From Escherichia phage RB49: a stretch of DNA of 64,000 bases. The position numbers were made by a program, and so were the translations under genes. The DNA lies in the sequence record NC_005066.1; one strand, written 5' to 3'. Under the pieces are notes generated by a model. That model worked only from the letters and a program-made list of their open reading frames with translations, did not search any database and was not told the DNA's origin. Shown here one piece after another: positions 10,738 to 62,683 of the stretch. Numbering within the stretch: position 1 is the stretch's first letter; each line of letters begins with the position of its first letter.

Positions 10738-11255
10738 TGACAGAAACTAAACCTATGTTAAAATTTGTTGTTCCTGTAAAAAAATTAGAGATAAACGGGA
10801 AACATATTAAGATCCCAAAAATGGGGATTAAGCAACATCGATTATTAAAAGATGTTCGTAGCTGTGATGAAACATTAAAGATTCTTCTTGATTCAATCTG
10901 TCCTGGGTTAAACGCTGCCGAGTCTGAATTGGTTATGCTTAACCTTTGTGCGTTTAATGGTAAGTGTCTGGAAGAAAAAGATGGTCTTAAGCTGTCTGAT
11001 GTGTATATTTGTACAGAGACCGAATTTACTTTAAATGGTAAAGTCTTTAAATTTAAAAATCCAATGTATACTTCTGACCCCATTATCGATGACGCTGATT
11101 TCTTGAGTCATCATTATCACGATCCTAGCGTAGACTTCCATGATTTCCCAGCTTTTATTATGGATTGGGCTACAGGATTAAGAAAAACTATTGCACTGGA
11201 TACACCGGAAGGTACTATCTATGGTGGAATTAACATATTGGATCGCCTATCATGA
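10737..11255 (+). CDS. 28: gp28 baseplate hub distal subunit
   Basis: 172 aa; position and size. Confidence 0.6.
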   Translation: MTETKPMLKFVVPVKKLEINGKHIKIPKMGIKQHRLLKDVRSCDETLKILLDSICPGLNAAESELVMLNLCAFNGKCLEEKDGLKLSDVYICTETEFTLNGKVFKFKNPMYTSDPIIDDADFLSHHYHDPSVDFHDFPAFIMDWATGLRKTIALDTPEGTIYGGINILDRLS

Positions 11256-12985
11256 ATGACGCATTAACATCATTTCGCGGGATGCGCAAGGAAGCGGAAG
11301 AAAACCCGATTGATAAACTTAACAAATTAGATAAACTTGATTCTATTGATAATTTGCAAGCCGCTACCGAATTGGTGGCAGAGACAGTAGAACAAAAATC
11401 TAATGAAGTTGTTGGTGCGGTAGAGGATAACACCGCAGCCAATGAATTGACGGCCGAGAATACCCAATCTACCGCTGGCAATACCCAAAAAACTTATGAA
11501 GAATTGCAAAAACTCAATAATTTCTCTTCTCAGATGAATGAGAAATTACGTGGTTTTGGTGTTATGATGGAACGTAGATTTGGTGTTGTCAGTAAAATGG
11601 CTAGCGGTATTGGTGCGATTGAAGAAGCACTGAAAAAACCGGAACAACCGCAAACAATGCCATCACCTCAGCCATTTTTGCCTACTGTACCGGAACAGCC
11701 TAATAATGACAACTATCAAGGTCTTCCAAAGAAAAAACCGGATGTTGATGACCGAAAGAAAAAGAACGCCACAGATAAGCGTAATGCTGATTCTATGGAA
11801 AATCTTCTTAAAGTTGTTCGTGGAGGATTTAAAGAAACCATAGGTATCTCTAATAAGGTCTTAGGGATGTTATTTAAGATCACTTTGACCGCTATGGCAG
11901 AAGCCGCAAAATGGGGTGCTATTTTGATGGGTATTGTTTTTGTCATTGATACCCTGATGGTTCATTTCAGATATTGGAGTGATTTATTCGAAACAAAATT
12001 CAAGGAATTTATGGATAAGGCCGGAGGATGGGCTGGTCCTATTAGCGATATTTTAACTACTGTTCGTCAGGTTCGAGATTATTGGTCTAAAGGAGAATAT
12101 AAAGAATTAATTAAATCTCTGGTTATGGGTATTGGTGATGCGTTCTATAAAACCTTTATCCAACTTGATCGAATTATCACTACTGGTATTGCTAAAATTC
12201 TTCGCATGATCCCTGGTATGGGTGATTATGCCGATAATTTAGAATACGGTGCTTTAAAGTCTGCTGTTGCTAAAGGCTATAAGCCAAATGAAAGAGAACT
12301 CGAATTAATGGATAAGGTCGAGTCTGAACACGAAGAAGACAAATATGGAGAGCGCACAGGATGGACAGGAAAAGCCCGTGATATTGGCGAGGCCATAGGC
12401 GAATCTATTAAAGATAAATTTAATGAAGGTCTTGTTAGTCTGGGCTGGAGAGATCAAAAGGATGTTGACGCAGAGAAACGACAAGAAGAATTAAAACGCG
12501 GGGAATACAAGTCTGTTTCTGCTGAACAACGATCTGCTAGTCGTAAACTTAAAATTAAAAGCGAGGGAGCGATCAATAATATTAATGAAGTTATGGAGAA
12601 TTTGAGCGGTGACTATGACAAAGAAAGAATGGAAGAGTTGAAAAAGGATATTGATGTTTACCGTGAACAAGTTCAAGATCCTACATTAGTTGAAAGTGAT
12701 CGTTCTCAGTTAGAGCGTCTTATTGAAAAATTTGATGAGATGTATGCTGATAAAACTAATGGTGTGGTTCCAACTAACCCTGTTCCTGCAACTGAAACGG
12801 AAACAGCAAAACAAGCGGAACGTACTGAACAAATGCAGAAACAAGCTGCAATCCAGCAACAAACGACAAATCAGACCTCAAACGTAAATAATACACAAAT
12901 TGTAACAAACAATAGAACTATTAAACAGGGTGCACCAACAACTAGAATTGATGCCCCTGGTACAATTAATATGGGGAACTTTTAA
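11252..12985 (+). CDS. 29: gp29 baseplate hub / tail tape-measure protein
   Basis: 577 aa; position and size; coiled-coil-rich. Confidence 0.65.
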   Translation: MNDALTSFRGMRKEAEENPIDKLNKLDKLDSIDNLQAATELVAETVEQKSNEVVGAVEDNTAANELTAENTQSTAGNTQKTYEELQKLNNFSSQMNEKLRGFGVMMERRFGVVSKMASGIGAIEEALKKPEQPQTMPSPQPFLPTVPEQPNNDNYQGLPKKKPDVDDRKKKNATDKRNADSMENLLKVVRGGFKETIGISNKVLGMLFKITLTAMAEAAKWGAILMGIVFVIDTLMVHFRYWSDLFETKFKEFMDKAGGWAGPISDILTTVRQVRDYWSKGEYKELIKSLVMGIGDAFYKTFIQLDRIITTGIAKILRMIPGMGDYADNLEYGALKSAVAKGYKPNERELELMDKVESEHEEDKYGERTGWTGKARDIGEAIGESIKDKFNEGLVSLGWRDQKDVDAEKRQEELKRGEYKSVSAEQRSASRKLKIKSEGAINNINEVMENLSGDYDKERMEELKKDIDVYREQVQDPTLVESDRSQLERLIEKFDEMYADKTNGVVPTNPVPATETETAKQAERTEQMQKQAAIQQQTTNQTSNVNNTQIVTNNRTIKQGAPTTRIDAPGTINMGNF

Positions 12986-14043
12986 TGAAAATTAGTGTTA
13001 TCAATGATGCCGTTGATAGCTTTAAAGCGGGGGTTAAAACCTCCGCTGGTTTTACCTCAAAAAATAAAGGGAAAACATTAACCGCTCAATTCCCCGCTGA
13101 ACGTGCTAGCGGTAATGATGCTAGCGGTTATTATATCAACGACTTATATAATAATGGTCTGTTATTCACTGCATACGATTATACATCTCGTACTACCGGA
13201 TCGTTGCGTGATTTCAGGAAAAAGAAAAATGTTGCTAGCGGTTTTGGTGGTAGCGTTAATATCGCTGGTTTTGATTTAAATTTGGGTGGGAGAAATGCTG
13301 CATTTGACCGAGAGGCAATTGCTAATATTCTTCTTCCTCGTAGTCAATCTGACGTTGACGCTGCCAGCCATAAGTTTAATGATGTTGGTGAATCTGTTAT
13401 TTCTCGCGGCGGTGGTACTTTAGGCGGTGCTCTTTCTAATATGGCATCTACTGCCGTTTTTGGTGGTATCGAAAGTATTACTGGTGGATACCTTGCCGAT
13501 CACGGTGAACAGATTTATAATACTGCGCGAAGCATGTATGCGGGTGCTGACGCACGAACGAAAAACTACGTATGGCATCTAACCCCACGTAGTATTGAAG
13601 ACCTTCGCAATATTCTGATCATATACGAAACGTTTTTAGAATTGTCTTATGGTTCTAGTGGTATTTCCAGCACCGCAAAAGAATTAAAAGCGGAAGTTGA
13701 TGCGTGGTATAAAAATACACTATTGAGAAAATCCACTCCAGAGGAAGCGAAGAGAAATGATACTCTGTTTGAAGGGATCACCGATTTTCTATCAAACGTA
13801 ATTACTGTATCTAACCCGACAATATGGATGATCTCTAACTTCGGCAAGCGTACATCGTTTGAAGGGCGTAGCGATGCATTTGGTCCCGCTCAGATCTCAA
13901 GTGTACGTCTGGACAAGTCGCCTGATGGTAAGTTTAATGGCCTTGCTATTTCTCCTAACTTGCCGAGTACCTTTGTTCTGGAAGTAACATTTAGAGAGAT
14001 CTTGACACTTTCCCGTGGTACTATATTTGGGAGTGCGGCATAA
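12985..14043 (+). CDS. 48: gp48 baseplate tail-tube cap
   Basis: 352 aa; position and size. Confidence 0.65.
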   Translation: MKISVINDAVDSFKAGVKTSAGFTSKNKGKTLTAQFPAERASGNDASGYYINDLYNNGLLFTAYDYTSRTTGSLRDFRKKKNVASGFGGSVNIAGFDLNLGGRNAAFDREAIANILLPRSQSDVDAASHKFNDVGESVISRGGGTLGGALSNMASTAVFGGIESITGGYLADHGEQIYNTARSMYAGADARTKNYVWHLTPRSIEDLRNILIIYETFLELSYGSSGISSTAKELKAEVDAWYKNTLLRKSTPEEAKRNDTLFEGITDFLSNVITVSNPTIWMISNFGKRTSFEGRSDAFGPAQISSVRLDKSPDGKFNGLAISPNLPSTFVLEVTFREILTLSRGTIFGSAA

Positions 14044-14975
14044 TGTTTGATTTAAATGACTTTAACGAACAAGCCGCTAACCTTGACTTTCAGCGATCGA
14101 ACTTATTCAGTGTGGCATTTGCCACCACTCCAAGTAATAAGACACAAGCGATCCTAGAAAGTATGGGTGGTGCGGTATATGATATTATACCAAATGCATT
14201 AAATGACTATTTCGGGATTACTCGTGGTGATTATACTGACGCATTAACAAATCTTGCTGTACAGGGTGTTAGGCGTGCTGTTGATTCATCTGGTGTCAAA
14301 AAGTATCTTTTAGGTGCAATGTCATCCCGCGTAGTTCAATCTCTTCTGGGGCAATTTGATGTTGGTACGTATGCGCTTGACTGGTTCAATATGGCATATA
14401 AGACAAGCGGTCTTCTGGTGTATGCTGTTAAGGTTCCAGAAAACAGATTGAATTATGAAATGGACCGTAACCACAATGCGCCAAACATTCGAATTACCGG
14501 ACGTGATTTTGATCCGCTTGTATTGAGCTTTAGAATGGACTCTAGCGCATCAAACTATAGAGCAATGCAGGATTGGGTTAACTCAGTAGAAGACCCCGTT
14601 ACAGGGCTTCGTGCGCTTCCTGTTGACGTTGAAGCAGATATTCAGGTCAACTTACATAACCGAATGGGAGTTCCTCACACGATCATGATGTTTAATGGTT
14701 GTGTTCCTGTTGGTGTGAGTGCACCGGAATTAAACTATGAAAACAACAACGAAATCACAACATTCGATGTTACTTTTGCGTATAGGACTATGCAAACTGG
14801 TGCTGTAGGAGAGCAAGCCGCGCGAGAATGGATTGAGGATAAGGCAATAAACGCAATAACAAACACTTTCGGTAATAATTTACTTGATAGTGGGTTATCT
14901 GCTGCTGGTAATGCTTTATCGCGTCTAAATGGCGTTGGTGGGCGTGTGGTGAATACTGTTACTAACTGGTTCTGA
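14043..14975 (+). CDS. 54: gp54 baseplate tail-tube initiator
   Basis: 310 aa; position and size; ATGA start/stop overlap with gp48. Confidence 0.65.
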   Translation: MFDLNDFNEQAANLDFQRSNLFSVAFATTPSNKTQAILESMGGAVYDIIPNALNDYFGITRGDYTDALTNLAVQGVRRAVDSSGVKKYLLGAMSSRVVQSLLGQFDVGTYALDWFNMAYKTSGLLVYAVKVPENRLNYEMDRNHNAPNIRITGRDFDPLVLSFRMDSSASNYRAMQDWVNSVEDPVTGLRALPVDVEADIQVNLHNRMGVPHTIMMFNGCVPVGVSAPELNYENNNEITTFDVTFAYRTMQTGAVGEQAAREWIEDKAINAITNTFGNNLLDSGLSAAGNALSRLNGVGGRVVNTVTNWF

Positions 14976-14981
14976 TAAGCG

Positions 14982-15014
14982 AAAGGCGGGGATAATCCCC
15001 GCCTTTTTATTTTG
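14982..15014. terminator. Bidirectional rho-independent terminator
   Basis: Hairpin aaaggcgggga-taa-tccccgccttt flanked by A- and T-runs between convergent genes 54 and the lipoprotein gene. Confidence 0.65.
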
Positions 15015-15492
15015 CTAAATCATTGCAATATTTTAGTGCCTTAGTTTGAAATTCTGCGCTGTTAAGTTCTTCATAACGGTCATAATCACCGTTTAATGCT
15101 GCCTTTCTTGCTTCTTGCTCTATCTGCATGTCAGACATGATAATACAGCGATCCCGCGCTTTCATCTTCTCAAGTTGTATAGACTCTTCTTTCTGCTTGC
15201 GCAATTCTTCTTGACGCTTCTTTTCTTCTTGTGCTTTCTCTTCCCGCGCTTCTTTGATTGCATCCTTGAACATCTGCGTTTGTGGTGCTAAACCAACTTT
15301 AACTCGATCTACGTCTCGACGTTCCATTTTAGAAATAAAGCATGATTCGATCTGATCATCACTTGCATATGCTGCTTTACATTCACGAAGCAAGAAAACC
15401 GGATCTGATTTAGCATTCATCATAGCTTCCATGTTGGCACAACCAGTAAGCATGAATACAGCCGCAAGACCAATCAGTTTAATCATTTTCAT
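15007..15492 (-). CDS. Putative lipoprotein with a charged coiled-coil region
   Basis: 161 aa; N-terminal signal with lipobox LTGC; start overlaps the stop of the upstream ADP-ribosyltransferase gene. Confidence 0.55.
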   Translation of the reverse strand: MKMIKLIGLAAVFMLTGCANMEAMMNAKSDPVFLLRECKAAYASDDQIESCFISKMERRDVDRVKVGLAPQTQMFKDAIKEAREEKAQEEKKRQEELRKQKEESIQLEKMKARDRCIIMSDMQIEQEARKAALNGDYDRYEELNSAEFQTKALKYCNDLAK

Positions 15493-16313
15493 TTAGTCAC
15501 CTCACCGAAAATTGTAAATTGTCTACGATTCTCATCGCCGAAAGATTCTACTACGTCGTTTACCTTGACGCAAGTCCCGCGCGGTAAAATTACTTCACAT
15601 TCGCAAGGGTTCCATGCAATGGACCCAACAACAAAACCTTTATGATCTTTTACGTCAATTACCCATGATACATTACAAGAATGTTGCATCTTTCCGGTCA
15701 TTGATTCATATCGATTCTCACAATAAAGGCTAGTGCTGTTTGATAGCCATCCTCCAAAGATGATCGGTGTCATGCTGGTTGACACAAAGTTTTTAAAGGT
15801 AAATTCCTTATCTTCAATAATACGCTCTATTGTCTGAATGTCAAGATGTTGACCGCGATAAAGAGTACCGTTTAACTTTTCGGTTTTATCCATGACGCAA
15901 TCCATCAAATCAACAATCTCTGATATCTCATCGGTCATGTCTTCTTCCCCTAAGAGAGCACCATTTACCCATTCGTATTGCTCAGACACATAATCACAGA
16001 TTGCATTATATTCTGCTGGTGTTATGTTGTTATGTTTGTAATGTTTGAATACATTATCTCCAAAGTCTTCGGAGTGTACTTCATACATCACATTAATGAT
16101 TTTCTTGACAAATCCATAATCTTGTGTCTCACGCTCAAGGAAGCGGATAACCTTCACATAATCATCAAAGTTAATCTGATCGCTGATCATCTCAGTGATC
16201 ATGTAACCATTAATCCCCTCAATGTCATATGTTTCAATATAATTGTCCATACGTTCCATCATTGATTCGCGTGATTCTTCCGAAAGACGAAAATCCTGTA
16301 ATTTCTTGAACAT
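15489..16313 (-). CDS. ADP-ribosyltransferase, Alt/Mod-like R-S-E class, short paralogue
   Basis: 274 aa; LYRG...FVSTS...ECEVILPRG motifs, parallel to the C-terminus of the adjacent Alt. Confidence 0.7.
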   Translation of the reverse strand: MFKKLQDFRLSEESRESMMERMDNYIETYDIEGINGYMITEMISDQINFDDYVKVIRFLERETQDYGFVKKIINVMYEVHSEDFGDNVFKHYKHNNITPAEYNAICDYVSEQYEWVNGALLGEEDMTDEISEIVDLMDCVMDKTEKLNGTLYRGQHLDIQTIERIIEDKEFTFKNFVSTSMTPIIFGGWLSNSTSLYCENRYESMTGKMQHSCNVSWVIDVKDHKGFVVGSIAWNPCECEVILPRGTCVKVNDVVESFGDENRRQFTIFGEVTK

Positions 16314-16336
16314 TTTAAACCTCCCATATAACAGAA

Positions 16337-16367
16337 AACGGGGCTAGTATAAAACTAGTCCCCGTTT
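16337..16367 (-). terminator. Rho-independent terminator between alt and the downstream ART gene
   Basis: Hairpin aaacggggctagt-ataaa-actagtccccgttt. Confidence 0.5.
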
Positions 16368-16390
16368 GAGTCAACCATTATTTCTTAAAA

Positions 16391-18442
16391 TTACATTTTA
16401 AATTTATCTGGCATTGCGTCTACAGATACCAGATCAGCGATAAGCTGACGTAGAGTTGCCTTATCTGCTTTCTTACGTTCGGTTTTAGCTTCGCTAATGA
16501 AGCTGGAGAAAGACAGGTCAGAAGCAGGTTTAACAACACCTTCACGGATGAATGCATCACCGTCCGCGATCATCTCGCCAGATTCTTGTAATGCTGCCAG
16601 TTCATTTTTGTTCATAATATGTGCCTCAATGTAATAAGTTTCTTGTGAATCCGTCGATGCCGTAGCACGAGTTACCGTATCAAAGGATAACACAACACCG
16701 CGAGGAAGTAAAATCTCGCATTCTTTGTAAGCAAATGCTTTGTTACCTACTGGCAAGACAGGGATGTTTTCCGCGCCAGCAATGGAGAAAGCAACATTGG
16801 CGCCACCTTCACCGCGAGAGCCAGCCATAGAATCAACACCAGCAACGGCACTAGCCACGTTTGCATTCCAGCCGCCAAAAATGTTAGGTGCAAGGGAAGT
16901 GCTCACATAGTTTTTAAAGTAAAACGCTTTTTGCTTACGTGCAGTTTCCCACATTTGCGACCGGAAGTCCATACCACGATACAGAATAGTACCCGGATCA
17001 AGTTTAACGCCATAGTTGGAGAAGGCATTATCCAGTGCATCGCACATCTTGACCAATTCTTCTGGATCTGATATGCCTTCAAACTCTTCCAGCTTGCGGT
17101 CGGTTAGGAAGTTGTTCATATTGATGTATGCTGCATCGGCATATTCGCTCAACACAAAACCTTCCGCGCCTGGCAGATCAAGATCAATATCTGCCATCAT
17201 TTCACCCATGTTGCTAGCAATTGCTTCAAACATACCGGAAGCAACATTACGTAGGGCATCGGTTTTAATCTGGGTGATATGACTACGCAGCATTTCAGCT
17301 TTTACATCTGCTGGCATAGACTGGTCTACTCGATCCATTGCCAGGGCGGTGATCTTGTTTTCGAATACTTCCTCGCTCATGATTTCTTTTAAGCGTTTGA
17401 CCGAGGCTGCGATAACTTCCGCAGACAACGGATCATATTGATCCTGAACTTTTACCAGTTCGCTTACTGCGTATTTTGCATCGGCTTCGCTTTCAAAAAT
17501 AGTACGCATGAAACCATAGCGAGTGATAATATCACTTGTCCAGTCATTCAGAGAACGGGCGGTTGAACGTTCTAAGGCTTGACGGTCAATCAGAGTATTA
17601 AACTGTTTCTTAGGTTCGGCTTCGGTGATATCTTCTTCCGGTTTAAGATTAATTTTTTCTGGATGATTCACATAGTCGCTGTTATAGGTCGCTTGAGTTT
17701 TCAGCATTTCTTCTTTAGTCAAACGAGATTTAGCCGCTACGCGTTGTTCTGCTTCCGCGTTTCGTTCTTCTTCTGACACAAGACTAGCCGCATACGCTTC
17801 ATCTTTAGTCAGAGATTCACCAGTAGCCTTAGATACCCAGCGATCACCTAAATCACTTTCTACTTTAGTGAACAAGGATTCATCAAGTTTAATCCCTTTA
17901 ATCTTATCAATCGCCATCCCGCGACGCTTGACAACAACTAAAGCGATCTTTTTGCTGGTCATTACTTCCTGCTGGAATACTTCAAACTTCGGTGTACGAC
18001 GCACCAAACGCTCTATAACGCGCTTAACCAGTTCGGTCTTACCTTTCATGCGGGATACGTTAAAACGGAACATAACAGCGTCTAATTGCGATTTACGGGC
18101 TGTTTCCATAACCACATCAAAAGCACTTGCCATGACTGCAATCGGGTTATCGCCTAGACCATTTTTAAGCTGTACAATACGACCGCTTTTGTTCATTTCG
18201 CACAGTACAACATGTGCGGTCTTGTCACCCATACGAATGATTTTAGGTGTTTTGTTGGTGAAGTTACAAAGACGGACAATCACATCTTTATCGCGTGTCT
18301 GTACTGCAAAAAGCTGTTTAGGATTCTGCTTAGGCTTTAAGCACTGTACCGGAGCAATACTGCCAAAGTTTTCTTCCTCTTCCGTCAACAGCCATTTCTC
18401 GAAAGATTCAATCATTAGATCGTCGATTTCTAAGTTAAACAT
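16391..18442 (-). CDS. alt: Alt ADP-ribosyltransferase (packaged, modifies host RNA polymerase)
   Basis: 683 aa (T4 Alt is about the same); C-terminal ART motifs LYRG, YVSTS, ECEILLPRG. Confidence 0.8.
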   Translation of the reverse strand: MFNLEIDDLMIESFEKWLLTEEEENFGSIAPVQCLKPKQNPKQLFAVQTRDKDVIVRLCNFTNKTPKIIRMGDKTAHVVLCEMNKSGRIVQLKNGLGDNPIAVMASAFDVVMETARKSQLDAVMFRFNVSRMKGKTELVKRVIERLVRRTPKFEVFQQEVMTSKKIALVVVKRRGMAIDKIKGIKLDESLFTKVESDLGDRWVSKATGESLTKDEAYAASLVSEEERNAEAEQRVAAKSRLTKEEMLKTQATYNSDYVNHPEKINLKPEEDITEAEPKKQFNTLIDRQALERSTARSLNDWTSDIITRYGFMRTIFESEADAKYAVSELVKVQDQYDPLSAEVIAASVKRLKEIMSEEVFENKITALAMDRVDQSMPADVKAEMLRSHITQIKTDALRNVASGMFEAIASNMGEMMADIDLDLPGAEGFVLSEYADAAYINMNNFLTDRKLEEFEGISDPEELVKMCDALDNAFSNYGVKLDPGTILYRGMDFRSQMWETARKQKAFYFKNYVSTSLAPNIFGGWNANVASAVAGVDSMAGSRGEGGANVAFSIAGAENIPVLPVGNKAFAYKECEILLPRGVVLSFDTVTRATASTDSQETYYIEAHIMNKNELAALQESGEMIADGDAFIREGVVKPASDLSFSSFISEAKTERKKADKATLRQLIADLVSVDAMPDKFKM

Positions 18443-18485
18443 TTTATATCCTCTAGTTGATAACCTATAAACCTATATTTATGAA

Positions 18486-18507
18486 AAGGGGGCTTAACGC
18501 CCCCTTT
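18486..18507 (-). terminator. Rho-independent terminator
   Basis: Hairpin gggggc-ttaa-cgccccc with a T-run on the minus strand after the 18509..18721 gene. Confidence 0.55.
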
Positions 18508-18721: not shown

Positions 18722-18786
18722 TTGATACTCCTTAGTAGTTCGTTTCGGTATGGGTGTATTATGATATACACCCTCTGTTATGTCAA
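18722..18786 (-). promoter_or_regulatory. Early promoter cassette (sigma70-like -35 TTGACA / -10 cATAAT plus conserved leader)
   Basis: Minus strand reads TTGACA-17 bp-CATAAT-ACACCCATACCGAAACGAA-GGAG-ATG; the same architecture recurs more than 20 times in the window. Confidence 0.6.
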
Positions 18787-18792
18787 CAACTT

Positions 18793-18972
18793 TTAGAACA
18801 TTTTTGAAATTAATTCTGCTTTGATTTCGCAGAGAACATCTAAAGATTTCTCGTCACCTGCTTTTGCGGCTTCTGTTTGCATTTTTGAAATGGCTTCAAT
18901 GTCAGTGCAATTATAAGCCGCTTGAACTTTAGCGATTGCGATGATTGCCGATTCGATGGTTAAGTGTTTCAT
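18793..18972 (-). CDS. Hypothetical small early protein
   Basis: 59 aa ORF (MKHLTIESAI...), hand-translated; promoter cassette and RBS upstream. Confidence 0.45.
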   Translation of the reverse strand: MKHLTIESAIIAIAKVQAAYNCTDIEAISKMQTEAAKAGDEKSLDVLCEIKAELISKMF

Positions 18973-19033
18973 GTTTGATTCTCCTTTCGTTTCGGTATGG
19001 GTGCATTATAGGGGATCGGTGACCCCCTGTCAA
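18973..19033 (-). promoter_or_regulatory. Early promoter cassette with palindromic spacer
   Basis: TTGACA, spacer containing GGGGTCACCGATCCCC, TATAAT-like box, conserved leader. Confidence 0.6.
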
Positions 19034-19040
19034 CAACTTT

Positions 19041-19595
19041 TTAGTTATTTTTTAATTGTTCATCTTGCAATAATGCAATCACATGCTGGCGATGTTCTTC
19101 CGATTGAGACACACCGAAAAAGTTTGTTTTGTAGAAATACTCTAATCGGTCTTCTCGTGTGCTCTCTTCCATCATGATCGCGGGTAGTCCGAGATTTCGG
19201 AAACGTCGCTTTTCTGCTGGCGTAAAATCACTGTAATACAACATAGAATCATCATTACAAGCAATGCTAAACTCATCCTTCATAAAGGAGAATATTGCGT
19301 TTAAACGCTGTTTACCGTCCACGATTTCGATCTCATAGCGAGAGCCATCATCAATCTTAGCCATTGCGATAGCACCAACCGGAAAATCATTAATCAGGTT
19401 TTCGATAAACATACGTTTGTTTTCGGTGTCCCATACTAAAGGACGCTGATAATCTGGGTTCATGTTGATATAGCCATCTTCTAACCATGCTTCATAAACA
19501 GAGATAACAAAGTTTTTAGTATTGGTATAGTAACGGCGTTTAGGCGTTAAACGGTTCATGTTATAGTCTCCTGAATGGATCATCACGTAAATCAA
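19041..19595 (-). CDS. DUF262 / ParB-like nuclease-NTPase domain protein
   Basis: 184 aa; DYQRPLVWD and VDGKQRL motifs match the DUF262 signatures (IPxFQRxYxW, DGQQR) known from GmrSD-type proteins. Confidence 0.6.
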   Translation of the reverse strand: MIYVMIHSGDYNMNRLTPKRRYYTNTKNFVISVYEAWLEDGYINMNPDYQRPLVWDTENKRMFIENLINDFPVGAIAMAKIDDGSRYEIEIVDGKQRLNAIFSFMKDEFSIACNDDSMLYYSDFTPAEKRRFRNLGLPAIMMEESTREDRLEYFYKTNFFGVSQSEEHRQHVIALLQDEQLKNN

Positions 19596-19890
19596 TATCT
19601 TTTAAGAACTCATCCCATGAATGGCGGATATTGTTCTTAATTCTCCAGATAAGAGCAGGGATTGAACGCTCTCCCATCTGGAAGTATGGATCATATGATC
19701 CGTATGCCCAATATGCTACTACAATTCCACAATCAGCGCAATAGTATTCTATTTCACTTGCTGGCGACCAAAGTCCATCAATATGATCGGTGATCTTGCT
19801 TTCGATGTTATGGCTATGACAATCAGGGCAACGGATGCAATGACCTTGTTTATCGTAATTTGACGTTAGCGAATACTTAAACAATCTCAT
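19561..19890 (-). CDS. Zinc-ribbon protein
   Basis: 109 aa; CIRCPDCHSH ... YCADCG cysteine pairs; overlaps both neighbours (operon). Confidence 0.5.
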   Translation of the reverse strand: MRLFKYSLTSNYDKQGHCIRCPDCHSHNIESKITDHIDGLWSPASEIEYYCADCGIVVAYWAYGSYDPYFQMGERSIPALIWRIKNNIRHSWDEFLKDIDLRDDPFRRL

Positions 19891-20606
19891 TATAGATCCT
19901 TATTTGCTTCAAATACTGCCTTTGCGAATCCTCGCGGGGTAAGTGACCTGATAGTCTTTGTTTTCGTTCCTTTCCCGCCTAGCTTAGAATGCTGTTTACT
20001 GTACCCTTTATTAATCTGCAAAGGTTTCTTTTCTGGCATTATAAAGCCTTGTCCGGTCCATAAGCAAGTCTTTTTCGGGTACATATCACGGGCGGCAATA
20101 TACTCAGGAAAAGTAGGATGTTTATCATCTTCCGGCAAATAACCGCCATATTCCCACGGATGGAACATATAATCAGGCTTACGCCACATGCTAGAGATAA
20201 CGCTTACAGGATTCTCTATCATGTAGGGAACTCCTATCCATTCACCCAAATAAGCGGTTATTTTAGCTGCCCTTACATCATGAACTTGAATCAATGGTCC
20301 TTGTTCTAGTTTCTTTCGTTCAAAGTGCGCAGCGCCACTAACAGCTAAATTGGTGCACGGTGGGAATGCAAAGATAATATCCGGTTTCCCCCATTCAAGG
20401 TCCATTGCTCTTTCCAGCCAGTTCAAATCAATCCAGGTGTTTACATAGGTAATGTTTGGATGTTCAAATCTGGTATTATATTTTTTGTATGTACCGTGGT
20501 CGCCATCGTCAGCATTAAAGCAGATCACCTTATGACCCGCTTTAGCCCATTCTAACCCCATTATCCCCGACCCGTCAAAGTTGCAGAATATTAATTTTTG
20601 TTTCAT
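19890..20606 (-). CDS. Compact C5-cytosine methyltransferase-like protein
   Basis: 238 aa; motif I-like FDGSGIMG, motif IV-like FPPCTNLAVSGA (Pro-Cys catalytic dipeptide), motif VI-like MIENPV at canonical spacings; only about 100 aa remain where a target-recognition domain would sit. Confidence 0.45.
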   Translation of the reverse strand: MKQKLIFCNFDGSGIMGLEWAKAGHKVICFNADDGDHGTYKKYNTRFEHPNITYVNTWIDLNWLERAMDLEWGKPDIIFAFPPCTNLAVSGAAHFERKKLEQGPLIQVHDVRAAKITAYLGEWIGVPYMIENPVSVISSMWRKPDYMFHPWEYGGYLPEDDKHPTFPEYIAARDMYPKKTCLWTGQGFIMPEKKPLQINKGYSKQHSKLGGKGTKTKTIRSLTPRGFAKAVFEANKDL

Positions 20607-21422: not shown

Positions 21423-21899
21423 TTATTTGCACCACACTGTAATTTTCTTATCATGTTGGTAGTGAATCCATCGAATATCATCTTTATCAATCATGACAGT
21501 AACATACCCATTTACTAGTGATTTGTCAAAACGGTTATGTAACAGTGCAATATATTGAAAGAATGGTTCTTTTGTATTTGAATATATTCCCTTACCATCA
21601 AACGTCATGACATTTTTGTGAACTTTAAATTCATTACGAAGAACAGCCGTCATTGTCCCGTCTTCATTAGTTTTGAGTTTTAATTCGGATTCTTTGTAAA
21701 AATATGCGTCACGGGCTTTACTTTCTTCCCCGTCTTGTACTCTTACTTCACTAGCATAATCACACTGATAGGTCTTATCTACATTTTCGATCTTTTCTTG
21801 TGTCATATCAAAAAGCGGTGCGACCTTTTTCTTGGCCGCGTGTGCTACGTTGGTCATGGACAGTGCTGCAACAACCGCAATAGCAATAATCTTCTTCAT
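21423..21899 (-). CDS. Secreted/periplasmic hypothetical protein
   Basis: 158 aa; N-terminal signal peptide MKKIIAIAVVAALSMTNVAHA. Confidence 0.55.
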   Translation of the reverse strand: MKKIIAIAVVAALSMTNVAHAAKKKVAPLFDMTQEKIENVDKTYQCDYASEVRVQDGEESKARDAYFYKESELKLKTNEDGTMTAVLRNEFKVHKNVMTFDGKGIYSNTKEPFFQYIALLHNRFDKSLVNGYVTVMIDKDDIRWIHYQHDKKITVWCK

Positions 21900-43351: not shown

Positions 43352-43410
43352 AATATAGTCCTCACTTTGATTCGATGTTTGTATTATACACTGTTGCGTT
43401 ACGCTGTCAA
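43352..43410 (-). promoter_or_regulatory. Early promoter cassette
   Basis: TTGACA-16 bp-TATAAT on the minus strand. Confidence 0.5.
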
Positions 43411-44856
43411 CTCTTTTTCAAAAGATTTTACGATATACATGATAGTGCTCAATTCAGACGGCGCTACTGTCTCTGTCCAACCATCCGGCATATCTTCTTT
43501 CGAGATATAGGAAGTTTTACCTTTCATCGCTTCCTTGATCTTGTTCTCTAAGTCTAAGATCTTTTGACCGTCTTGTAAAGTCAGTTCATAAAAGATCTCG
43601 TGGTCGAATTTAGAAACGTTAGATTGCTGTTTCATTCTTTCTTGTGTTGTTTTATTTGTTATACCAAATTTAATTCCCACCAAGAAAGAATCTTTAATTA
43701 TTTTCTGTATATACAATACGCCTTTTTTGGATGGTCTAAATCCATAATGTGCACAATTCGGACATCCTTTACCAGATAAAAAATTTTGTGCGGATGTTGT
43801 ATATTCTCCACAATTAGAACACAACAATTTTAGATTTTTTACTTTTCCTCCTTTATAACCAGAATCAAAGCATACAAATGTTATATTATCACGGTCTTTA
43901 GATTCTTTAATAATATCGAGCATGGCTTCTTCTTCGGTTTTTAATCCAACCCCAGCACATTTAGCACACCCGTTTCTTCCATTTTTAATAGAATTTAATG
44001 ATGTTGTATACTCACCGTGTCGGTGACAACTAACTACCAAATTTTTTGTGTTTATATTTTTATAGCCATCAATAAAACCAACAACAGTTAAACCGAGTTG
44101 ATCTGCACACTCTTTTGCAAAATTAATAGCGTCTTCTTCTGAAAATGTTCTCTTAGACACTGCTTTATTTTTACTACATATAGGACAGCCACGACCCAAC
44201 CTACAGAAATTGTAATAACTGGTTTTAAATTCACCATGAATAAAACATTCAACAATTAAATTTCTCTCATTGTTTTTTACATACCCACCTTCAAATCCGA
44301 CAACTACACAATTTCCTAGTATATTTGCACGTTCGACCGCTTCTAGTGTAACAATGTTTATGTCATATTTTGGTGTTCCTTTGCATTTAGGACAACCACG
44401 CCCTTGCATATATTTGTTATGCGAAGTTTTATATTCTCCATGATGTTTACAGTTCACTATAAGATTTCTGTATGCGCTTGTTTTATATCCACCGTCGAAT
44501 CCTATAATATCTTCGGTTTCTCTTTTCTGAGACTCCATCAAAACATCGGCAAGTGCTTTATTAGTTGAGTTTCTTCTGATTTCAGCAACTCTATTGGTTG
44601 CACATTTTTTACAGCCATAGTTTTTTTCGTAATTTCCGATATTTGACGTGAAGATGTTTTTACATTTGCATAATATACATGCTTTTGTTTTAACAGAATT
44701 CCATTCACCAATAAAGCCAAGATATATATGTTTTTTGGATAATGATATTTTAATAAATCTTTTCTCATATTCCATAGGAGAAATAGCACTAGATGTTTTT
44801 CCAGTCCATTGAATGTCTTTAGCATATCTAAGAATTGTCATTGATTTAATTTTCAT
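43399..44856 (-). CDS. Multi-zinc-ribbon repeat protein with C-terminal T5orf172/GIY-YIG-like domain (putative homing-endonuclease-like)
   Basis: 485 aa; five repeats of about 40 aa of form GF.GGYK...NL.V.C..HGEY.TS.......G.GCP.C, then GVLYIQKI...FLVGIKFGITNKTTQERMKQ. Confidence 0.5.
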   Translation of the reverse strand: MKIKSMTILRYAKDIQWTGKTSSAISPMEYEKRFIKISLSKKHIYLGFIGEWNSVKTKACILCKCKNIFTSNIGNYEKNYGCKKCATNRVAEIRRNSTNKALADVLMESQKRETEDIIGFDGGYKTSAYRNLIVNCKHHGEYKTSHNKYMQGRGCPKCKGTPKYDINIVTLEAVERANILGNCVVVGFEGGYVKNNERNLIVECFIHGEFKTSYYNFCRLGRGCPICSKNKAVSKRTFSEEDAINFAKECADQLGLTVVGFIDGYKNINTKNLVVSCHRHGEYTTSLNSIKNGRNGCAKCAGVGLKTEEEAMLDIIKESKDRDNITFVCFDSGYKGGKVKNLKLLCSNCGEYTTSAQNFLSGKGCPNCAHYGFRPSKKGVLYIQKIIKDSFLVGIKFGITNKTTQERMKQQSNVSKFDHEIFYELTLQDGQKILDLENKIKEAMKGKTSYISKEDMPDGWTETVAPSELSTIMYIVKSFEKELTA

Positions 44857-49038: not shown

Positions 49039-52000
49039 ATGGCAGATTTTTCTCAACATTTCAAGGCCACATTTGGCTTTGACGCTGGTAATGAAAAGGT
49101 CGTCAATGTAGCATTGGCTGATAAGAATGTCAACACCGATGCGGTCAACGTTGAATTTTTCAATTACCATAATGGCATTACTCAGTATGACACAACTCGC
49201 GGTTATGATCAATACGGAACTACAATTTATCAAAACCGTCCATATTATGCAAAAGAAGATATCACAAAGCCAGCAGGTGATTTTGACCCGACTAAATGGC
49301 AAGCACTGCGCACGGACCCACGTTGGGATTATATTGCAGCAACTTCCGGTGATACTCCTTTAAAGTCTGGTGATTATATCGCAGCAGATGGTCAATTTGC
49401 AAACTTGACTTTCTCTATGCCAACTAAACCAGCAGAGGGAGACACTATAACAGTAAAAGATATCGGTGGCAAGTGTGGTGTTAACGAATTATCGTTCTTG
49501 AGTTCAGGACATGAGTTTTACCATAACGGTAATGTGTATAACCGAAAATGGTATTGCACTACCCCGTATGCAATGAACTATTTCATCTTTGTTCGGAATC
49601 GTTGGCATGTTTATCAGACGGGAACAGAGCCGCGCGGTGTGTACGCACAGCCAGCGATTGATGCTATTCAAATGCAGAATGGTGATCAGGTATTTCGTCG
49701 TAGTTCGTTGGGTAATATTACCTTAGTGCTTCCTAAGTTTGCCAACAATGGCGACATGATCCAGACTACAGACCTTGACGGATTAACCGCAACCAACCAC
49801 GTTACGGTTAAAGTTCATGAGCACGCAGAAGAACAATCAATTGGCACGTCCGGTCTAAAAGAGATTATCGGTAAGCGTAGCGGTCATGGTGTATTCATCT
49901 TTGACAAACCGGAAAACTTATGGCGTTTGTGGGATGGTGATCAGTCTGTTCGTCTTAAACCGATCATCGATGACACTCGCTTGCAACCTAATAGCTATGT
50001 TGCTGTATTTGGTGATCGTGATGTTACTCTGACTCTACCGACCAATGTTGAGCCGGGTGATCGTATTCAAGTTTCTATGCAGTATATGCACGGAAACCAG
50101 AATTGCCGTATTATCACCGCCACAGAGGATACAAAAATCCTTATGTCGAAAAACATGGTTCAGTTTCCGAAGCGTAGCGAGTACCCATTCAACGGGACCG
50201 ACACATGGAAGGAAGTGTCTGAATTGTCGTTCAATGCGGCTAGTGATTATGTACCTTATCTGGAGTTCTCTTATTCAGAAGGTGATGATGGTAAGAAACA
50301 TTGGCTGGTAGCACACTCTCATCCGATCGTCGAACGAGTAGACCCTACTCGTAAAGATCGTGTTGGTGTAATTGCACTGGCTACCCAGACTGAAACGAAT
50401 AAAAACCATGAAGAGAATCCTAGCGACGAAGTTGCGGTAACACCAAAAATGCTGGCTAATAAAACCGCCAACGAAACTCGACGCGGTATTGCTCGCATTG
50501 CGACTCAAGCGGAAACGCATCAAGATACTGGTTCCAACTTCCTGGATGATGTTATCGTTACGCCTAAAAAGTTAAATGATTGTGTTGCTACCGAAGCCCG
50601 TCGTGGCGTGATGGAAATTGCAACCCAGCACGAAACCAATGAAGGTTTAGACGATACCCGCGCTATTACACCTAAGAAATTAGAAGAACGTCGCGCTTCC
50701 GAAGATCTCGCTGGTATTGCTGAAATTGTTCAGGCTGGCGGTAGTGCTGCCGCTCGACGTGGCGAAGCTGGTACAGGGATCTATAACATCAACGACCATG
50801 TTAAAATTGTTACGCCACAAAACATCAACGAAGTCAAGGCGACCGAAACTTCCCGTGGTGTTGGCTATCTGGCAACTGACGCGGAAGTGCAAGGGGCTAC
50901 AGAATCAACCCCGCAAGATGCTTTACTAATCACGACTCGCACGCTAACGAAACGTACTGCTACCGAATCGCGCACTGGTATCGCTGAAATTGCAACTCAG
51001 GAAGAAACAAACTTAGGTCAAAGTGATAACCATATCATCACGCCTAAAAAGCTGCATACTCGCCGCGCAACGGAAACTTTACACGGTTTAGCAGAAATTG
51101 CAACTCAGCCGGAATTTGACGCAGGTCTTGACGATGCTCGCATTTCTACCCCATTGAAGATTAAAACCTTCTTTGAGAATGCACAGCGTTTGAAAGTAGA
51201 TCCGACTCAGGGGCTTAACCTTACTGGTGATTTGTGGCAAGGTATCATGATCAGCGGTCTGGATGCAACCGAAGACACAAAGGGTGTCGCTAAAGTTGCT
51301 ACTACTCAGCTTACGGATGCTGGTCAAGATGATACTACAATCATCACGCCTAAAAAGCTGCAAGGCAAAAAAGCCACCGAAGGTAAAGAAGGTATTATCC
51401 GCGTTGGTACTCAAGCCGAAACCGTGGCTGGTACACTGGCTAATGTAGCAATTTCTCCGAAGAACTTCAAATATGTTGTTCAGACAGAGGATACATGGAA
51501 AGCAACCGAAGCGCGTCGTGGATTCTTGAAAGTTGCTACTCAGGAAAACTGTTTTGTTGGTGATAATCTGCAAGGTTCTACTCAAGAACTAGGAAACTAC
51601 CAGCATGACGGAATTGCTGTTACTCCGAAAGGATTAAACTACGCACTTGCTAATTTCTTACCTAAGATGGCAACCGCTCAGAATAGTTTGAAATTGGGTA
51701 ACGTAGAGGCCGCTAAATGGGCGCGTAGAGACATTGACCAGACCATAGAGAGCAATTACACGTTTAATAAAAACGTTAACGTGAAGGGCGATTTAGAGTG
51801 CTTAAAATCTGGTTCCTTTGAAACTCTGTCTGTGACTAAGAACTCAACCGATGATCCGAGTAATGGTCATCTGGTGTTGGGTGAGCGTGGAGTTGACGGT
51901 CACACCGGAATTACTCTGCATGGCACAACCGCATCGGAAGGCATGAAAAACTCGTGGTCTATTATCGTTGGTGGTACTGGAACAGCGCAAGTTGTTGATA

Positions 52001-61924: not shown

Positions 61925-62683
61925 TTACTTGCAAACGTATTGATCTACATCAATTGCGCCACCGAATGTAGGATGACGTTTTTCGAATCGAATAGTTCCG
62001 TCGTTTGGTTCGAAAACGGAGTATTCATATAGATCTTTCTTGCCAACATTCTTATAAAACCCGCCTTTAGTCATAACGGTTTCTTGTACGTTTGCTTTGT
62101 GTACGTTGTATTCATCAATGTATACAAAATCAACCATCTTCCCATTTTTAATGGTTACTTTAAGATCTCCTGGTTGGTTTCCATATTTTGCATACAGTGG
62201 AGCTTCTTTAATTTTGGTGGAAATTCCATCTTTCATACTCCACTCATAACGAACGGTGCATTGATAGGTAAAAGTTTCGACCTTCGGTTCTTCCACCACT
62301 TTTTCTTCCTGTTTCGGTTGTTCTTCTTCAACCTTCGCAGAAGTCTCTGAATCGCTTTCTGACGCGGTTTCTTCTTTAGGTAATACATTCATCAAGTTTT
62401 GGATTTGAGCGTTGTATACAGCCTCCAGTGGCTGAATCTGCCCGATATTGATCATTGTATCACGAACAGTTTTATTCCAGTTGCGTTGCTCTTGTTTAAG
62501 CGACGGGTCAATCTTAACAGCCTTAACATATACTTCATGAAGTTTAGAATCAAGTGCGGAGATAGACTCATTAGCACAAATAAACTTCTCTGATTTGGTA
62601 GTAGCTTTAGCGCAATCAAAGGACGCAGCGTTAGCACCGAAAGCAGTAGCAGAAAGAACGATAGCAGCGATAATGTTTTTCAT
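61925..62683 (-). CDS. Secreted LprI-like (DUF1311) protein with Cys-containing C-terminal beta domain
   Basis: 252 aa; signal peptide MKNIIAAIVLSATAFGANA; FDCAKATTKSEKFICANESISALDSKLHEVY ... QRNWNKTVRD matches the DUF1311 pattern. Confidence 0.5.
   Translation of the reverse strand: MKNIIAAIVLSATAFGANAASFDCAKATTKSEKFICANESISALDSKLHEVYVKAVKIDPSLKQEQRNWNKTVRDTMINIGQIQPLEAVYNAQIQNLMNVLPKEETASESDSETSAKVEEEQPKQEEKVVEEPKVETFTYQCTVRYEWSMKDGISTKIKEAPLYAKYGNQPGDLKVTIKNGKMVDFVYIDEYNVHKANVQETVMTKGGFYKNVGKKDLYEYSVFEPNDGTIRFEKRHPTFGGAIDVDQYVCK

Follow-up and report, generated by a model that had tools for sequence, protein, structure and literature searches.

What purpose is served by a second ADP-ribosyltransferase (ART) gene and a lipoprotein gene, joined to each other by a start/stop overlap, next to the alt gene of Escherichia phage RB49? 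The question arises on the minus strand of the 64,000-nucleotide stretch of sequence record NC_005066.1 that we analyzed (hereafter the window), where the open reading frame (ORF) of alt (16391..18442), which encodes a 683-aa Alt-like ART, is followed by that of ART2 (15489..16313), a 274-aa stand-alone ART built on the Alt core, and by lpp (15007..15492), which encodes a 161-aa predicted outer-membrane lipoprotein. A sequence-only reading of this DNA had taken the two ARTs for tandem paralogues with divergent targeting regions and the lipoprotein for a product coupled to the shorter one; its observations, including the coordinates and motifs of all three ORFs, are confirmed here, and its interpretation is partly supported. 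We propose as the best explanation of the locus as a whole, with a probability of roughly 55%, that Alt is made late and packaged, that ART2 is an early and active enzyme, and that lpp is exported early and acts in competition between phages.

The 3.7-kb alt region of RB49 matches 57 phage genome records at 98-99% identity over its full length, all of those inspected belonging to the genus Krischvirus (RB49, Phi1, JSE, GEC-3S and relatives), and it is against this near-uniform background that lpp stands out. In genomes whose Alt is 98.8-99.4% and whose ART2 is 99.6% identical to the window's, the whole lipoprotein is only 33-37% identical and its mature region 25-30%, and the alleles of phages PHB13 and Whisky share 49% identity with each other. 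When the DNA of the window was compared with that of PHB13 in 100-bp sliding steps over 9.5 kb, identity stayed at 0.90-1.00 except in two intervals: an ORFan indel flanked by PeSL cassettes (18740-19038, described below) and 15033-15445 on the minus strand, the mature region of lpp, where it falls to 0.32-0.48. This hypervariable cassette starts just past the signal-peptide codons and ends just short of the stop codon and the terminator, and its upstream edge is abrupt, with identity at 0.91-0.99 over 15542-15446 and at 0.34-0.36 directly downstream. Its left anchor is the conserved stretch of signal-peptide and lipobox codons (residues 1-18; 15439..15492, minus strand), and its right anchor is a bidirectional intrinsic terminator (14981..15007; 12-bp stem with 7 GC pairs), which serves both lpp and the convergent gp54 gene on the plus strand (14043-14975). 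In a genome-wide comparison that set a composite of Phi1 (1-98 kb) and the RB49 window against the whole PHB13 genome, covering 511 ORFs, no full-length syntenic ORF was more diverged than lpp (33%), and the real genes nearest to it in divergence stood at 48% and 62-66%.

The alleles fall into nine classes at 70% and seven at 50% mature-region identity, and some of them are mosaics: the PHB13 and Whisky alleles agree at 79% over their last ~70 nt and at 30-56% over the rest, and in P0006 the N-terminal half is Whisky-like and the C-terminal half PHB13-like. The window's own allele is closer to that of a distant lineage, L006 (41.7%), than to the PHB13-type alleles of sister genomes (36.5%). 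Synonymous divergence (dS) in the same genome pairs amounts to 0.93-0.97 for lpp against 0.21-0.35 for alt and ART2, and the ratio of nonsynonymous to synonymous divergence (dN/dS, or omega) within allele types is 0.10-0.12. Because dS of lpp is raised along with its nonsynonymous divergence at an omega of about 0.1, the pattern indicates ancient alleles under purifying selection that have been moved between genomes by recombination and not rapid evolution in place; classic positive selection was rejected on the same two grounds. The cassette polymorphism appears not to have been described in the searchable literature.

The encoded protein has the marks of an exported lipoprotein. Its N-terminus (MKMIKLIGLAAVFMLTGC) comprises a basic n-region, a hydrophobic h-region and a lipobox (MKMIK-LIGLAAVFM-LTGC, with the lipobox cysteine at residue 18), MKMIKLIGLA..GC being invariant among Krischvirus alleles, and the authors of the W115 record, who used LipoP, annotated it as a putative lipoprotein. 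Across the 49 full-length family members on which our residue counts are based, the lipobox reads LTGC in 43 (LNGC, INGC, MTGC or LFGC in the rest) with G17 and C18 invariant, the residue that follows the cysteine is A, V, T or S in all 49 and never Asp, and the mature part contains exactly four further cysteines in 47. In E. coli, the absence of Asp at this +2 position directs a lipoprotein to the outer membrane. The product is accordingly predicted by this rule to be sorted to the outer membrane, after predicted export and lipidation at Cys18. In the most diverse set of sequences the invariant columns are M1, G17, C18, C38, C51, D60, G67, C116, G135 and C156, and the positions of the cysteines along the chain, rather than atomic coordinates, lead us to infer disulfides C38-C51 and C116-C156. 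The AlphaFold2 model (pLDDT 88) is all-helical, with a helical hairpin (31-41/45-65), a 62-residue helix (72-133) and two short C-terminal helices. The sequence-only reading had called the protein rich in charged coiled coil. Residues 83-103 are ~70% Glu, Lys or Arg in the sequence; with almost no hydrophobic positions, they look like a spacer made of one charged helix and not like a coiled coil. Attachment to murein through a C-terminal Lys, as in Braun's lipoprotein, was considered and set aside, the last residue being Lys in 45 of the 49 members and Asn in four, and so not invariant.

Outside its own family lpp resembles nothing that we could find. Two profile searches of 5.8 billion proteins returned only about 50 matching clusters, all on phage-sized or short contigs, and IMG/VR holds just two near-identical loci; neither plasmids nor 5,426 E. 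coli genomes gave a match; there was no Pfam, NCBIfam or PADLOC family above threshold (the best PADLOC hit having an E value of 0.0035 at 14.9 bits), and no fold match beyond its own relatives in Foldseek searches of the PDB and BFVD. Among the alt loci examined the lipoprotein occurs only in RB49-like lineages, and to judge from these searches it is restricted to the RB49-like phage clade and kept in every genome of it. The trio of alt, ART2 and lpp, converging on gene 54, persists in five lineages beyond Krischvirus, with the ART2 proteins of metagenomic lineages (P0047, P0048, P0049 and P0051) at 49%, 46%, 46% and 33% identity in search alignments (25-45% in global alignments). The proteins encoded downstream of ART2 in distant lineages match PHROG 16112, the family of lpp itself, at E values of 9e-25 and 2e-17. 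In RB49 the start codon of lpp overlaps the stop codon of ART2 by 4 nt (ATGA; junction gtgactaaATGAaaatg), with GAGG 8 nt upstream. L015 has the ATGA junction too, the two genes overlap by 1 nt (TAATG) in L006 and by 8 nt in L009, and in L017 they stand 1 nt apart. That a genuine lipoprotein gene overlaps the ART2 stop is borne out by the ATGA junction, the LTGC lipobox, conservation and dN/dS; by their conservation in the 57 Krischvirus records and in five distant lineages, together with dN/dS, both ART2 and lpp are to be regarded as real genes and not chance ORFs.

As for the ARTs, the 683-aa protein, whose gene is named alt in many records, carries the motifs ILYRG, VSTSL and KECEILLPRG, matches PHROG 802 ('Alt-like') over its full length (E value 7e-180) and shares 27% identity with T4 Alt over 695 columns (BLASTP, E value 1e-60). 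It is the orthologue of T4 Alt, the packaged and injected RNA polymerase ADP-ribosyltransferase, at the same locus: alt lies beside genes 54, 48 and 29 in T4 as in RB49, where these T4-type baseplate hub genes run on the plus strand and converge on alt. Phi1 annotation names the three genes phi1p184 (alt), ORF183 or phi1p183 (ART2, equivalent to RB49ORF183c) and ORF182 or phi1p182 (lpp), and the W115 record lists the trio as ADP-ribosyltransferase, ADP-ribosyltransferase and putative lipoprotein. ART2 displays LYRG (R153), STS (178-180) and ECEVILPRG (E238/E240). Both proteins exceed the cut-off of the Pfam family ADPrib_exo_Tox (PF03496; 23.4 bits), ART2 with 59.3 bits (4.3e-16) and Alt with 37.7 bits, and they match each other in BLASTP at an E value of 3.9e-16 (66.6 bits), so that they do stand as tandem paralogues. 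ART2 scores higher against T4 Alt (87.8 bits, 31% identity over 181 residues, E value 3.6e-23) than against its own neighbor, which argues for an old rather than a recent duplication.

The divergent targeting region attributed to ART2 does not survive alignment. The PHROG 802 profile aligns ART2 residues 8-268 to its positions 330-602 of 674, and when 1.84 billion representative proteins were searched, the alignments with many Alt proteins of 600-700 aa began at ART2 residues ~18-49; because these alignments cover the N-terminal part of ART2, that part is a diverged copy of the middle of Alt and not a foreign domain. ART2 is, on these alignments, a truncated Alt core of about residues 310-600, having in common with T4 Alt the catalytic half and the R-S-ExE residues and lacking the N-terminal ~310 and C-terminal ~80 residues of Alt. 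Consistent with this, the N-terminal region family PF26846 (Tevenvirinae_ADPRT) is recorded for 660-683-aa proteins only and not for ART2, and the 683-aa Alt itself has the full-length architecture, PF26846 region and C-terminal extension included.

ART2 nevertheless has what a working enzyme would need. Y108, N117, L120, D138, R153, S178, E238, E240 and R245 are invariant across ART2 orthologues and Alt proteins, so the R-S-E triad is intact in both paralogues, as the sequence-only reading had it. The AlphaFold2 model (pLDDT 89, pTM 0.87) matches 137 PDB chains at E≤1e-3 in Foldseek, led by Vis (5.6e-12) and C3bot2 (3.3e-11) and followed among the top matches by Certhrax, CDTa, iota Ia, C2-I and VIP2, and is of the C3/VIP2 type as modeled; a PDB search by sequence gave no match, so no solved Alt or close relative was found in this way. 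Within the R-S-E clade of ARTs, Glu-x-Glu is the signature of arginine-specific enzymes. From the kept catalytic residues (R153, S178-T-S, E238-x-E240) and the C3/VIP2-type fold we therefore consider ART2 most likely to be an active arginine-specific mono-ADP-ribosyltransferase, working in the infected cell during the first minutes. It is at least 97% identical in the 57 Krischvirus records, 100% in 34 of them, with dN/dS of 0.02-0.12, the profile of a maintained gene and not a decaying copy.

The duplication of an ART as such is already known and will not surprise specialists: RB49ORF183c has been listed with 44RRORF188c and T4 alt.-1/alt.-2 among paralogous duplications of alt (Nolan et al. 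2006, PMC1524935), and the ART2 family is present in PHROGs (15144, 'ADP-ribosyltransferase') and annotated in GenBank. The same slot between alt and gene 54 holds T4 alt.-1/alt.-2 and, in Aeromonas 44RR-like phages, tandem alt genes. The T4 pair, two small ORFs, covers only the N-terminal ~120 residues of Alt and has no ART domain, and Aeromonas phage Riv-10 (L025, 1122-4999) has tandem full-length alt paralogues (639 and 642 aa) beside gene 54 and no lipoprotein, an independent form of duplication at the same locus. Unlike the duplicates of T4 and Riv-10, Krischvirus ART2 consists of the catalytic half only.

Nor are there just two ARTs, as had been supposed. Phi1 and PHB13 also carry a 167-aa ModB-like gene (phi1p014) between srd and gene 56, the T4-syntenic site, whose product matches T4 ModB at 9e-10 and ModA at 2e-5. 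ART2 has no significant similarity to T4 ModA or ModB (BLASTP, E≥3.6), and this says nothing about the presence of Mod enzymes, because ART2 cannot detect Mod homologues; the ModB-like gene led us to reject ART2 as a substitute for missing Mod enzymes. By gene content Krischvirus therefore has three ARTs (Alt, one ModB-like enzyme and the Alt-derived core) where T4 has Alt and two Mods, each having reached the same number, the third by duplication of Alt in Krischvirus and of Mod in T4. The parallel extends further, in that ModA and ModB are small stand-alone R-S-E ARTs made early, as we infer for ART2, and in that the 4-nt overlap of ART2 and lpp has a counterpart between T4 modB and modA.

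The clearest difference between the two paralogues of the alt locus is their predicted timing and delivery. Upstream of alt, an intrinsic terminator hairpin (GGGGGC-GTTAA-GCCCCC followed by TTTT; 18484..18506, minus strand) ends the preceding early ORF, and a late-promoter-like element, CATAAATA (18476..18483, minus strand), lies 41 nt before the alt ATG and matches seven of the eight bases of the late-promoter consensus. The equivalent site holds a terminator and the perfect late promoter TATAAATA in T4, and AATAAATA in the distant lineage L006; the terminator hairpin before alt recurs in L012, L013, L014, L006 and T4. The spacing agrees with that of perfect TATAAATA sites in the window, which precede the ATGs at 49039 and 54156 by 36 and 41 nt; the ORFs that begin there we take to be tail-fibre genes 34 and 36. 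On this reading alt would be transcribed alone from this element, and its product would be made late and, like T4 Alt, enter the head for injection into the next host.

The 77-nt spacer between alt and ART2 (16314..16390, minus strand) is of a different kind. It contains TTGACT (16374-16369) and TATACT (16351-16346) separated by 17 nt, a 10/12 match to a promoter, overlapped by a hairpin with a G/C-tract, CGGGGACTAG/CTAGCCCCG (16364-16339), and followed by a T-run, the Shine-Dalgarno sequence GGGAGG and the ART2 ATG. All features of a PeSL cassette are present upstream of ART2 in aataatggTTGACTcaaacGGGGactagttttaTACTagCCCCgttttctgttatatGGGAGGtttaaaATG, namely a sigma70 consensus, an AT-rich upstream region, a stem-loop overlapping the -10 element, a Shine-Dalgarno sequence and an ATG, in the manner of the PeSL cassettes of RB49 and phi1, for which experiments have demonstrated strong early promoter activity as well as termination (Arbiol et al. 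2010, PMC2839356). The cassette is kept in four further lineages and is present in L006, L009 and L012-L015, with compensatory changes in the stem (GGGGACTAG/CTAGCCCC vs GGGGATCAG/CTGTCCCC). We infer two transcription units of different timing, alt alone and an early bicistronic operon of ART2 and lpp that would run from the PeSL to the bidirectional terminator at 14981-15007, its ART2 being non-packaged and, in contrast to T4 Alt, driven by an early sigma70 promoter rather than a late one. A literature search for an RB49 transcriptome showed no RB49 dataset among the papers that it returned.

PeSL shuffling as published exchanges whole ORFans between PeSLs (PMC2839356), and the exchange unit of lpp differs in being the mature part of one gene. 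The window also offers an example of the published kind at 18740-19038 (minus strand), where two near-identical PeSLs (aaaagttgTTGACA…cccataccgaaacgaa), with their promoters at 19033-19005 and 18786-18758, enclose a 59-aa ORFan (18972..18793) that is not in PHB13, a textbook case of PeSL-mediated insertion or deletion.

What, then, might lpp do? Our best guess is an early role in the periplasm in superinfection exclusion or inter-phage competition, chosen because old, exchangeable specificities are expected of molecules in conflict with a variable opponent. The niche may also be open, as no homologue of T4 Imm or Sp was found by tblastn in ~161 of the 164 kb of this genome type. The proposed course of events is that Alt, transcribed from CATAAATA beyond the terminator, would be made late, packaged and injected into the next host; that ART2, the old truncation-duplicate, would act early alongside the ModB-like enzyme; and that lpp would be exported, lipidated at Cys18, sorted to the outer membrane and closed by two disulfides into an elongated, all-helical molecule. 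Its scaffold would be fixed and its surface would exist in at least 7-9 ancient allele classes, exchanged between the signal-peptide and terminator anchors, with the signal-peptide codons that overlap the 3' end of ART2 providing the left homology arm; the protein would then act early in the periplasm against other phages, by superinfection exclusion or a related envelope block. T4 Sp and Imm, which are made early, reside in the envelope and shield an infected cell against phages that arrive afterwards, have the role proposed here for lpp, and differ from it in that neither is a lipoprotein and neither has a detectable homologue in Krischvirus. Sp is a small helical periplasmic protein, and alignment of lpp with it by hhalign covers the signal peptide only, with a probability of 8.8%; we know of no report of cassette polymorphism in Sp or Imm. 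A more specific form of this proposal, which we hold only tentatively and think doubtful as it stands, is that lpp is a helical 'ruler' on the outer membrane that presents a variable head at a fixed periplasmic depth and intercepts the tail tip or the entering DNA of superinfecting phages, making for allele-specific competition; the specificities would be kept by frequency-dependent selection and shuffled as a cassette between the two anchors.

Two other variable proteins came into view here. The first, a 252-aa product encoded at 61925-62683 (minus strand), begins with a Sec signal peptide (…FGANA|A), and its N-terminal part scores 26 bits against the Pfam LprI 'lysozyme inhibitor' domain (cut-off 22). 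Its C-terminal ~110 residues are polymorphic, with two Krischvirus allele classes (at least 97% vs 62-67%), and it may be a functional analogue of T4 Sp. The second is the gp38 adhesin, whose gene in Phi1 (L018, 44989-45765) lies ~108 kb from gene 37, not adjoining it as in T2/T6-type phages, and which among the Krischvirus records listed falls into two main types, at least 95% and ~82-84% identical to that of Phi1.

A number of findings weigh against competition as the role of lpp, or against the predicted timing. The products gp54, gp48 and gp29 are 97-100% identical between the window and PHB13 despite the divergence of lpp and do not covary with it; the tip of gp37 does not covary either, since AV108 and PHB13, which have the tips most like the window's, carry divergent lpp; both gp38 types occur with both lpp types, AV108, PTE-Eco09 and Whisky combining a divergent lpp with a Phi1-type gp38 (96-98%) and PHB13, E26, JK32 and 011D4 having the 82-84% type; and the two classes of the LprI-like protein are distributed independently of the lpp alleles. 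Among the 511 ORFs of the comparison between the composite and PHB13 no second gene shows comparable replacement, and no partner locus was found. The secreted LprI-family protein could equally be the analogue of Sp, which weakens the argument from an empty niche, nothing ties lpp to exclusion directly, and no sequence or fold similarity of lpp to Llp, Cor, Sp or any other protein was found. The timing of alt and of ART2 and lpp is read from consensus matches only, and in L017 there is no room for a promoter between alt and ART2. Last, functional independence of the two would leave the long-conserved pairing of ART2 with lpp without an explanation.

Of the other roles conceivable for lpp, the one that fares best, and which we still regard as unlikely, is that of an accessory in lysis timing or envelope disruption, whether an antiholin-like component, a sensor for lysis inhibition or a spanin helper, with the long helix bridging the outer membrane to the cell wall or the inner membrane. 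The predicted periplasmic location, outer-membrane anchor and 62-residue helix would suit such a part, T4-type lysis inhibition does work through periplasmic protein contacts, and the best PDB TM-score of the lpp model, although not significant, is with the helical outer-membrane lipoprotein QseG. The promoter upstream of ART2 and lpp is of the early sigma70 type, however, and not late, a lysis accessory offers no obvious reason for ancient allele polymorphism, and the genus already has T4-family i- and o-spanins and rI: RB49, Phi1 and JSE are members of the T4 PseT.3/PseT.2 spanin families (PMC6139136), and the PHB13 annotation gives 'spanin Rz' and 'Rz1' at 104867-105639. With this spanin pair elsewhere and no membrane-protein partner adjoining lpp, an o-spanin role for lpp was discounted.

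We find it improbable that lpp masks the phage's own outer-membrane receptor, blocking superinfection and protecting progeny from debris in the manner of T5 Llp or of Cor from phi80 and N15, small receptor-blocking lipoproteins of virulent or temperate phages at the outer membrane. Llp is likewise small, early and stabilized by disulfides, the predicted sorting of lpp (+2 never Asp) would place it correctly, and one lpp relative matches PHROG 1119 (Cor) weakly, at an E value of 0.006. That match covers residues 1-25 only, which are the signal peptide; lpp is about twice the size, has a long helix and resembles Llp and Cor in neither sequence nor fold; and it neither covaries with the gp38 type or the gp37 tip nor is linked to the adhesin gene, gene 38 lying ~67 kb away. 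Just as improbable in our estimation is an action against the host envelope (a stress sensor, a periplasmic protease, contact-dependent or colicin attack, or vesicle decoys) with alleles that track host diversity. It would accord with a product predicted to be early and exposed to the periplasm, with a polymorphism unrelated to any phage gene compared, and with the isolation of Krischvirus from diverse E. coli and Shigella hosts. It has to contend with the lack of similarity between lpp and any known inhibitor or anti-defence protein in the PADLOC search above, and with the general conservation of the periplasmic faces of host envelope proteins, a poor fit with alleles at 25-30% identity.

For ART2, the alternative to an early intracellular enzyme is a second packaged and injected internal protein like Alt, to which we give a slim chance. 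ART2 is an Alt homologue adjoining alt, L017 has no promoter between the two, and residues L10-S11-E12 resemble (L/I)-x-E, the motif cut by the T4 prohead protease. This LSE motif is not conserved in ART2 orthologues, and its candidacy as a prohead-protease cleavage or capsid-targeting signal was dropped for that reason; ART2 is also without the Alt regions, N-terminal and C-terminal, that were described above, and in most lineages a sigma70 PeSL with its terminator hairpin separates it from alt.

We return to the coupling of ART2 and lpp with which the question began. The 4-nt overlap is real, and says little alone because such overlaps are routine, occurring (at 1 or 4 nt) in five of 13 adjacent same-strand gene pairs in the W115 annotation as well as in T4 modB/modA; we found no evidence of a partnership of ART and lipoprotein. 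That the two form a functional pair, with lpp as an immunity protein, regulator or export partner or with ART2 modifying lpp or its maturation pathway, is very improbable: five lineages, among which ART2 identity falls to ~33%, keep the pair with its genes overlapping or abutting, and ART toxin genes often directly precede immunity genes, with ART-immunity pairs among the structural matches of ART2 (6drh, 8za7), but ART2 has no signal peptide and needs cytoplasmic NAD+ where lpp is predicted to be exported, which puts them in different compartments, the overlap is of a common kind, and ART2 at 99.6% identity beside mature lpp at 25-30% shows no co-evolution and argues against any allele-specific contact. 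The two products probably do not interact and have in common only a promoter and tight translational packing, and the simplest reading of their persistence side by side is that the short space from a late gene to a convergent late operon offers a single early promoter, which both genes use.

Several other features of the region came to light alongside this analysis. In phage Whisky (L003, 5040-8695, equivalent to about 11250-14975 of the window) the module of tail-tube initiator (gp54), cap (gp48) and tape measure (gp29) differs strongly from that of the window, with gp54 at 87% protein identity and gp29 DNA identity down to 0.30-0.60, next to alt and ART2 at 99%; it looks like a swapped baseplate-hub module. 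A 184-aa protein encoded at 19041-19595 (minus strand) has a GmrSD_N/DUF262 domain (Pfam 5.8e-20), a restriction-enzyme N-domain that is unusual in a virulent phage, and two genes away, at 19890-20606 (minus strand), a 238-aa protein with an FPPC motif is annotated as a DNA methyltransferase in Phi1 (ORF189). Two further minus-strand ORFs are not in PHB13. One (43399-44856; 485 aa) has five GCPxC/GCAKC zinc-ribbon-like repeats and a C-terminal segment that looks GIY-YIG/T5orf172-like by eye, and is probably a mobile or homing element; the other (21423-21899; 158 aa) carries a Sec signal peptide of the classical type (…TNVAHA|A), matches no Pfam family and, being absent from PHB13, counts as an accessory secreted protein.

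For the T4-type phages at large, ART2 is a further case of the repeated duplication of alt; it suggests that an injected effector can become an early intracellular one by mere deletion of regions that the packaged Alt has, and it adds one more to the phage ARTs that lack an assigned target. The cassette in lpp is in our view the more useful part of the finding, a moderately interesting and directly testable lead: a gene that is structurally constrained, by its lipobox and four cysteines, and yet the most polymorphic between near-identical coliphages of the type used in therapy. If the history proposed here is true, it constitutes a long-lived, cassette-type polymorphism in a strictly lytic phage, and if lpp does act as a ruler of the kind described, a virulent phage would have a polymorphic locus for exclusion, similar to the immunity-type polymorphism of temperate phages and permanently hitched to an early ART operon. 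RB49-like phages are used in phage cocktails, and should lpp control superinfection or mixed infection, its allele type would predict which Krischvirus phages can be combined.

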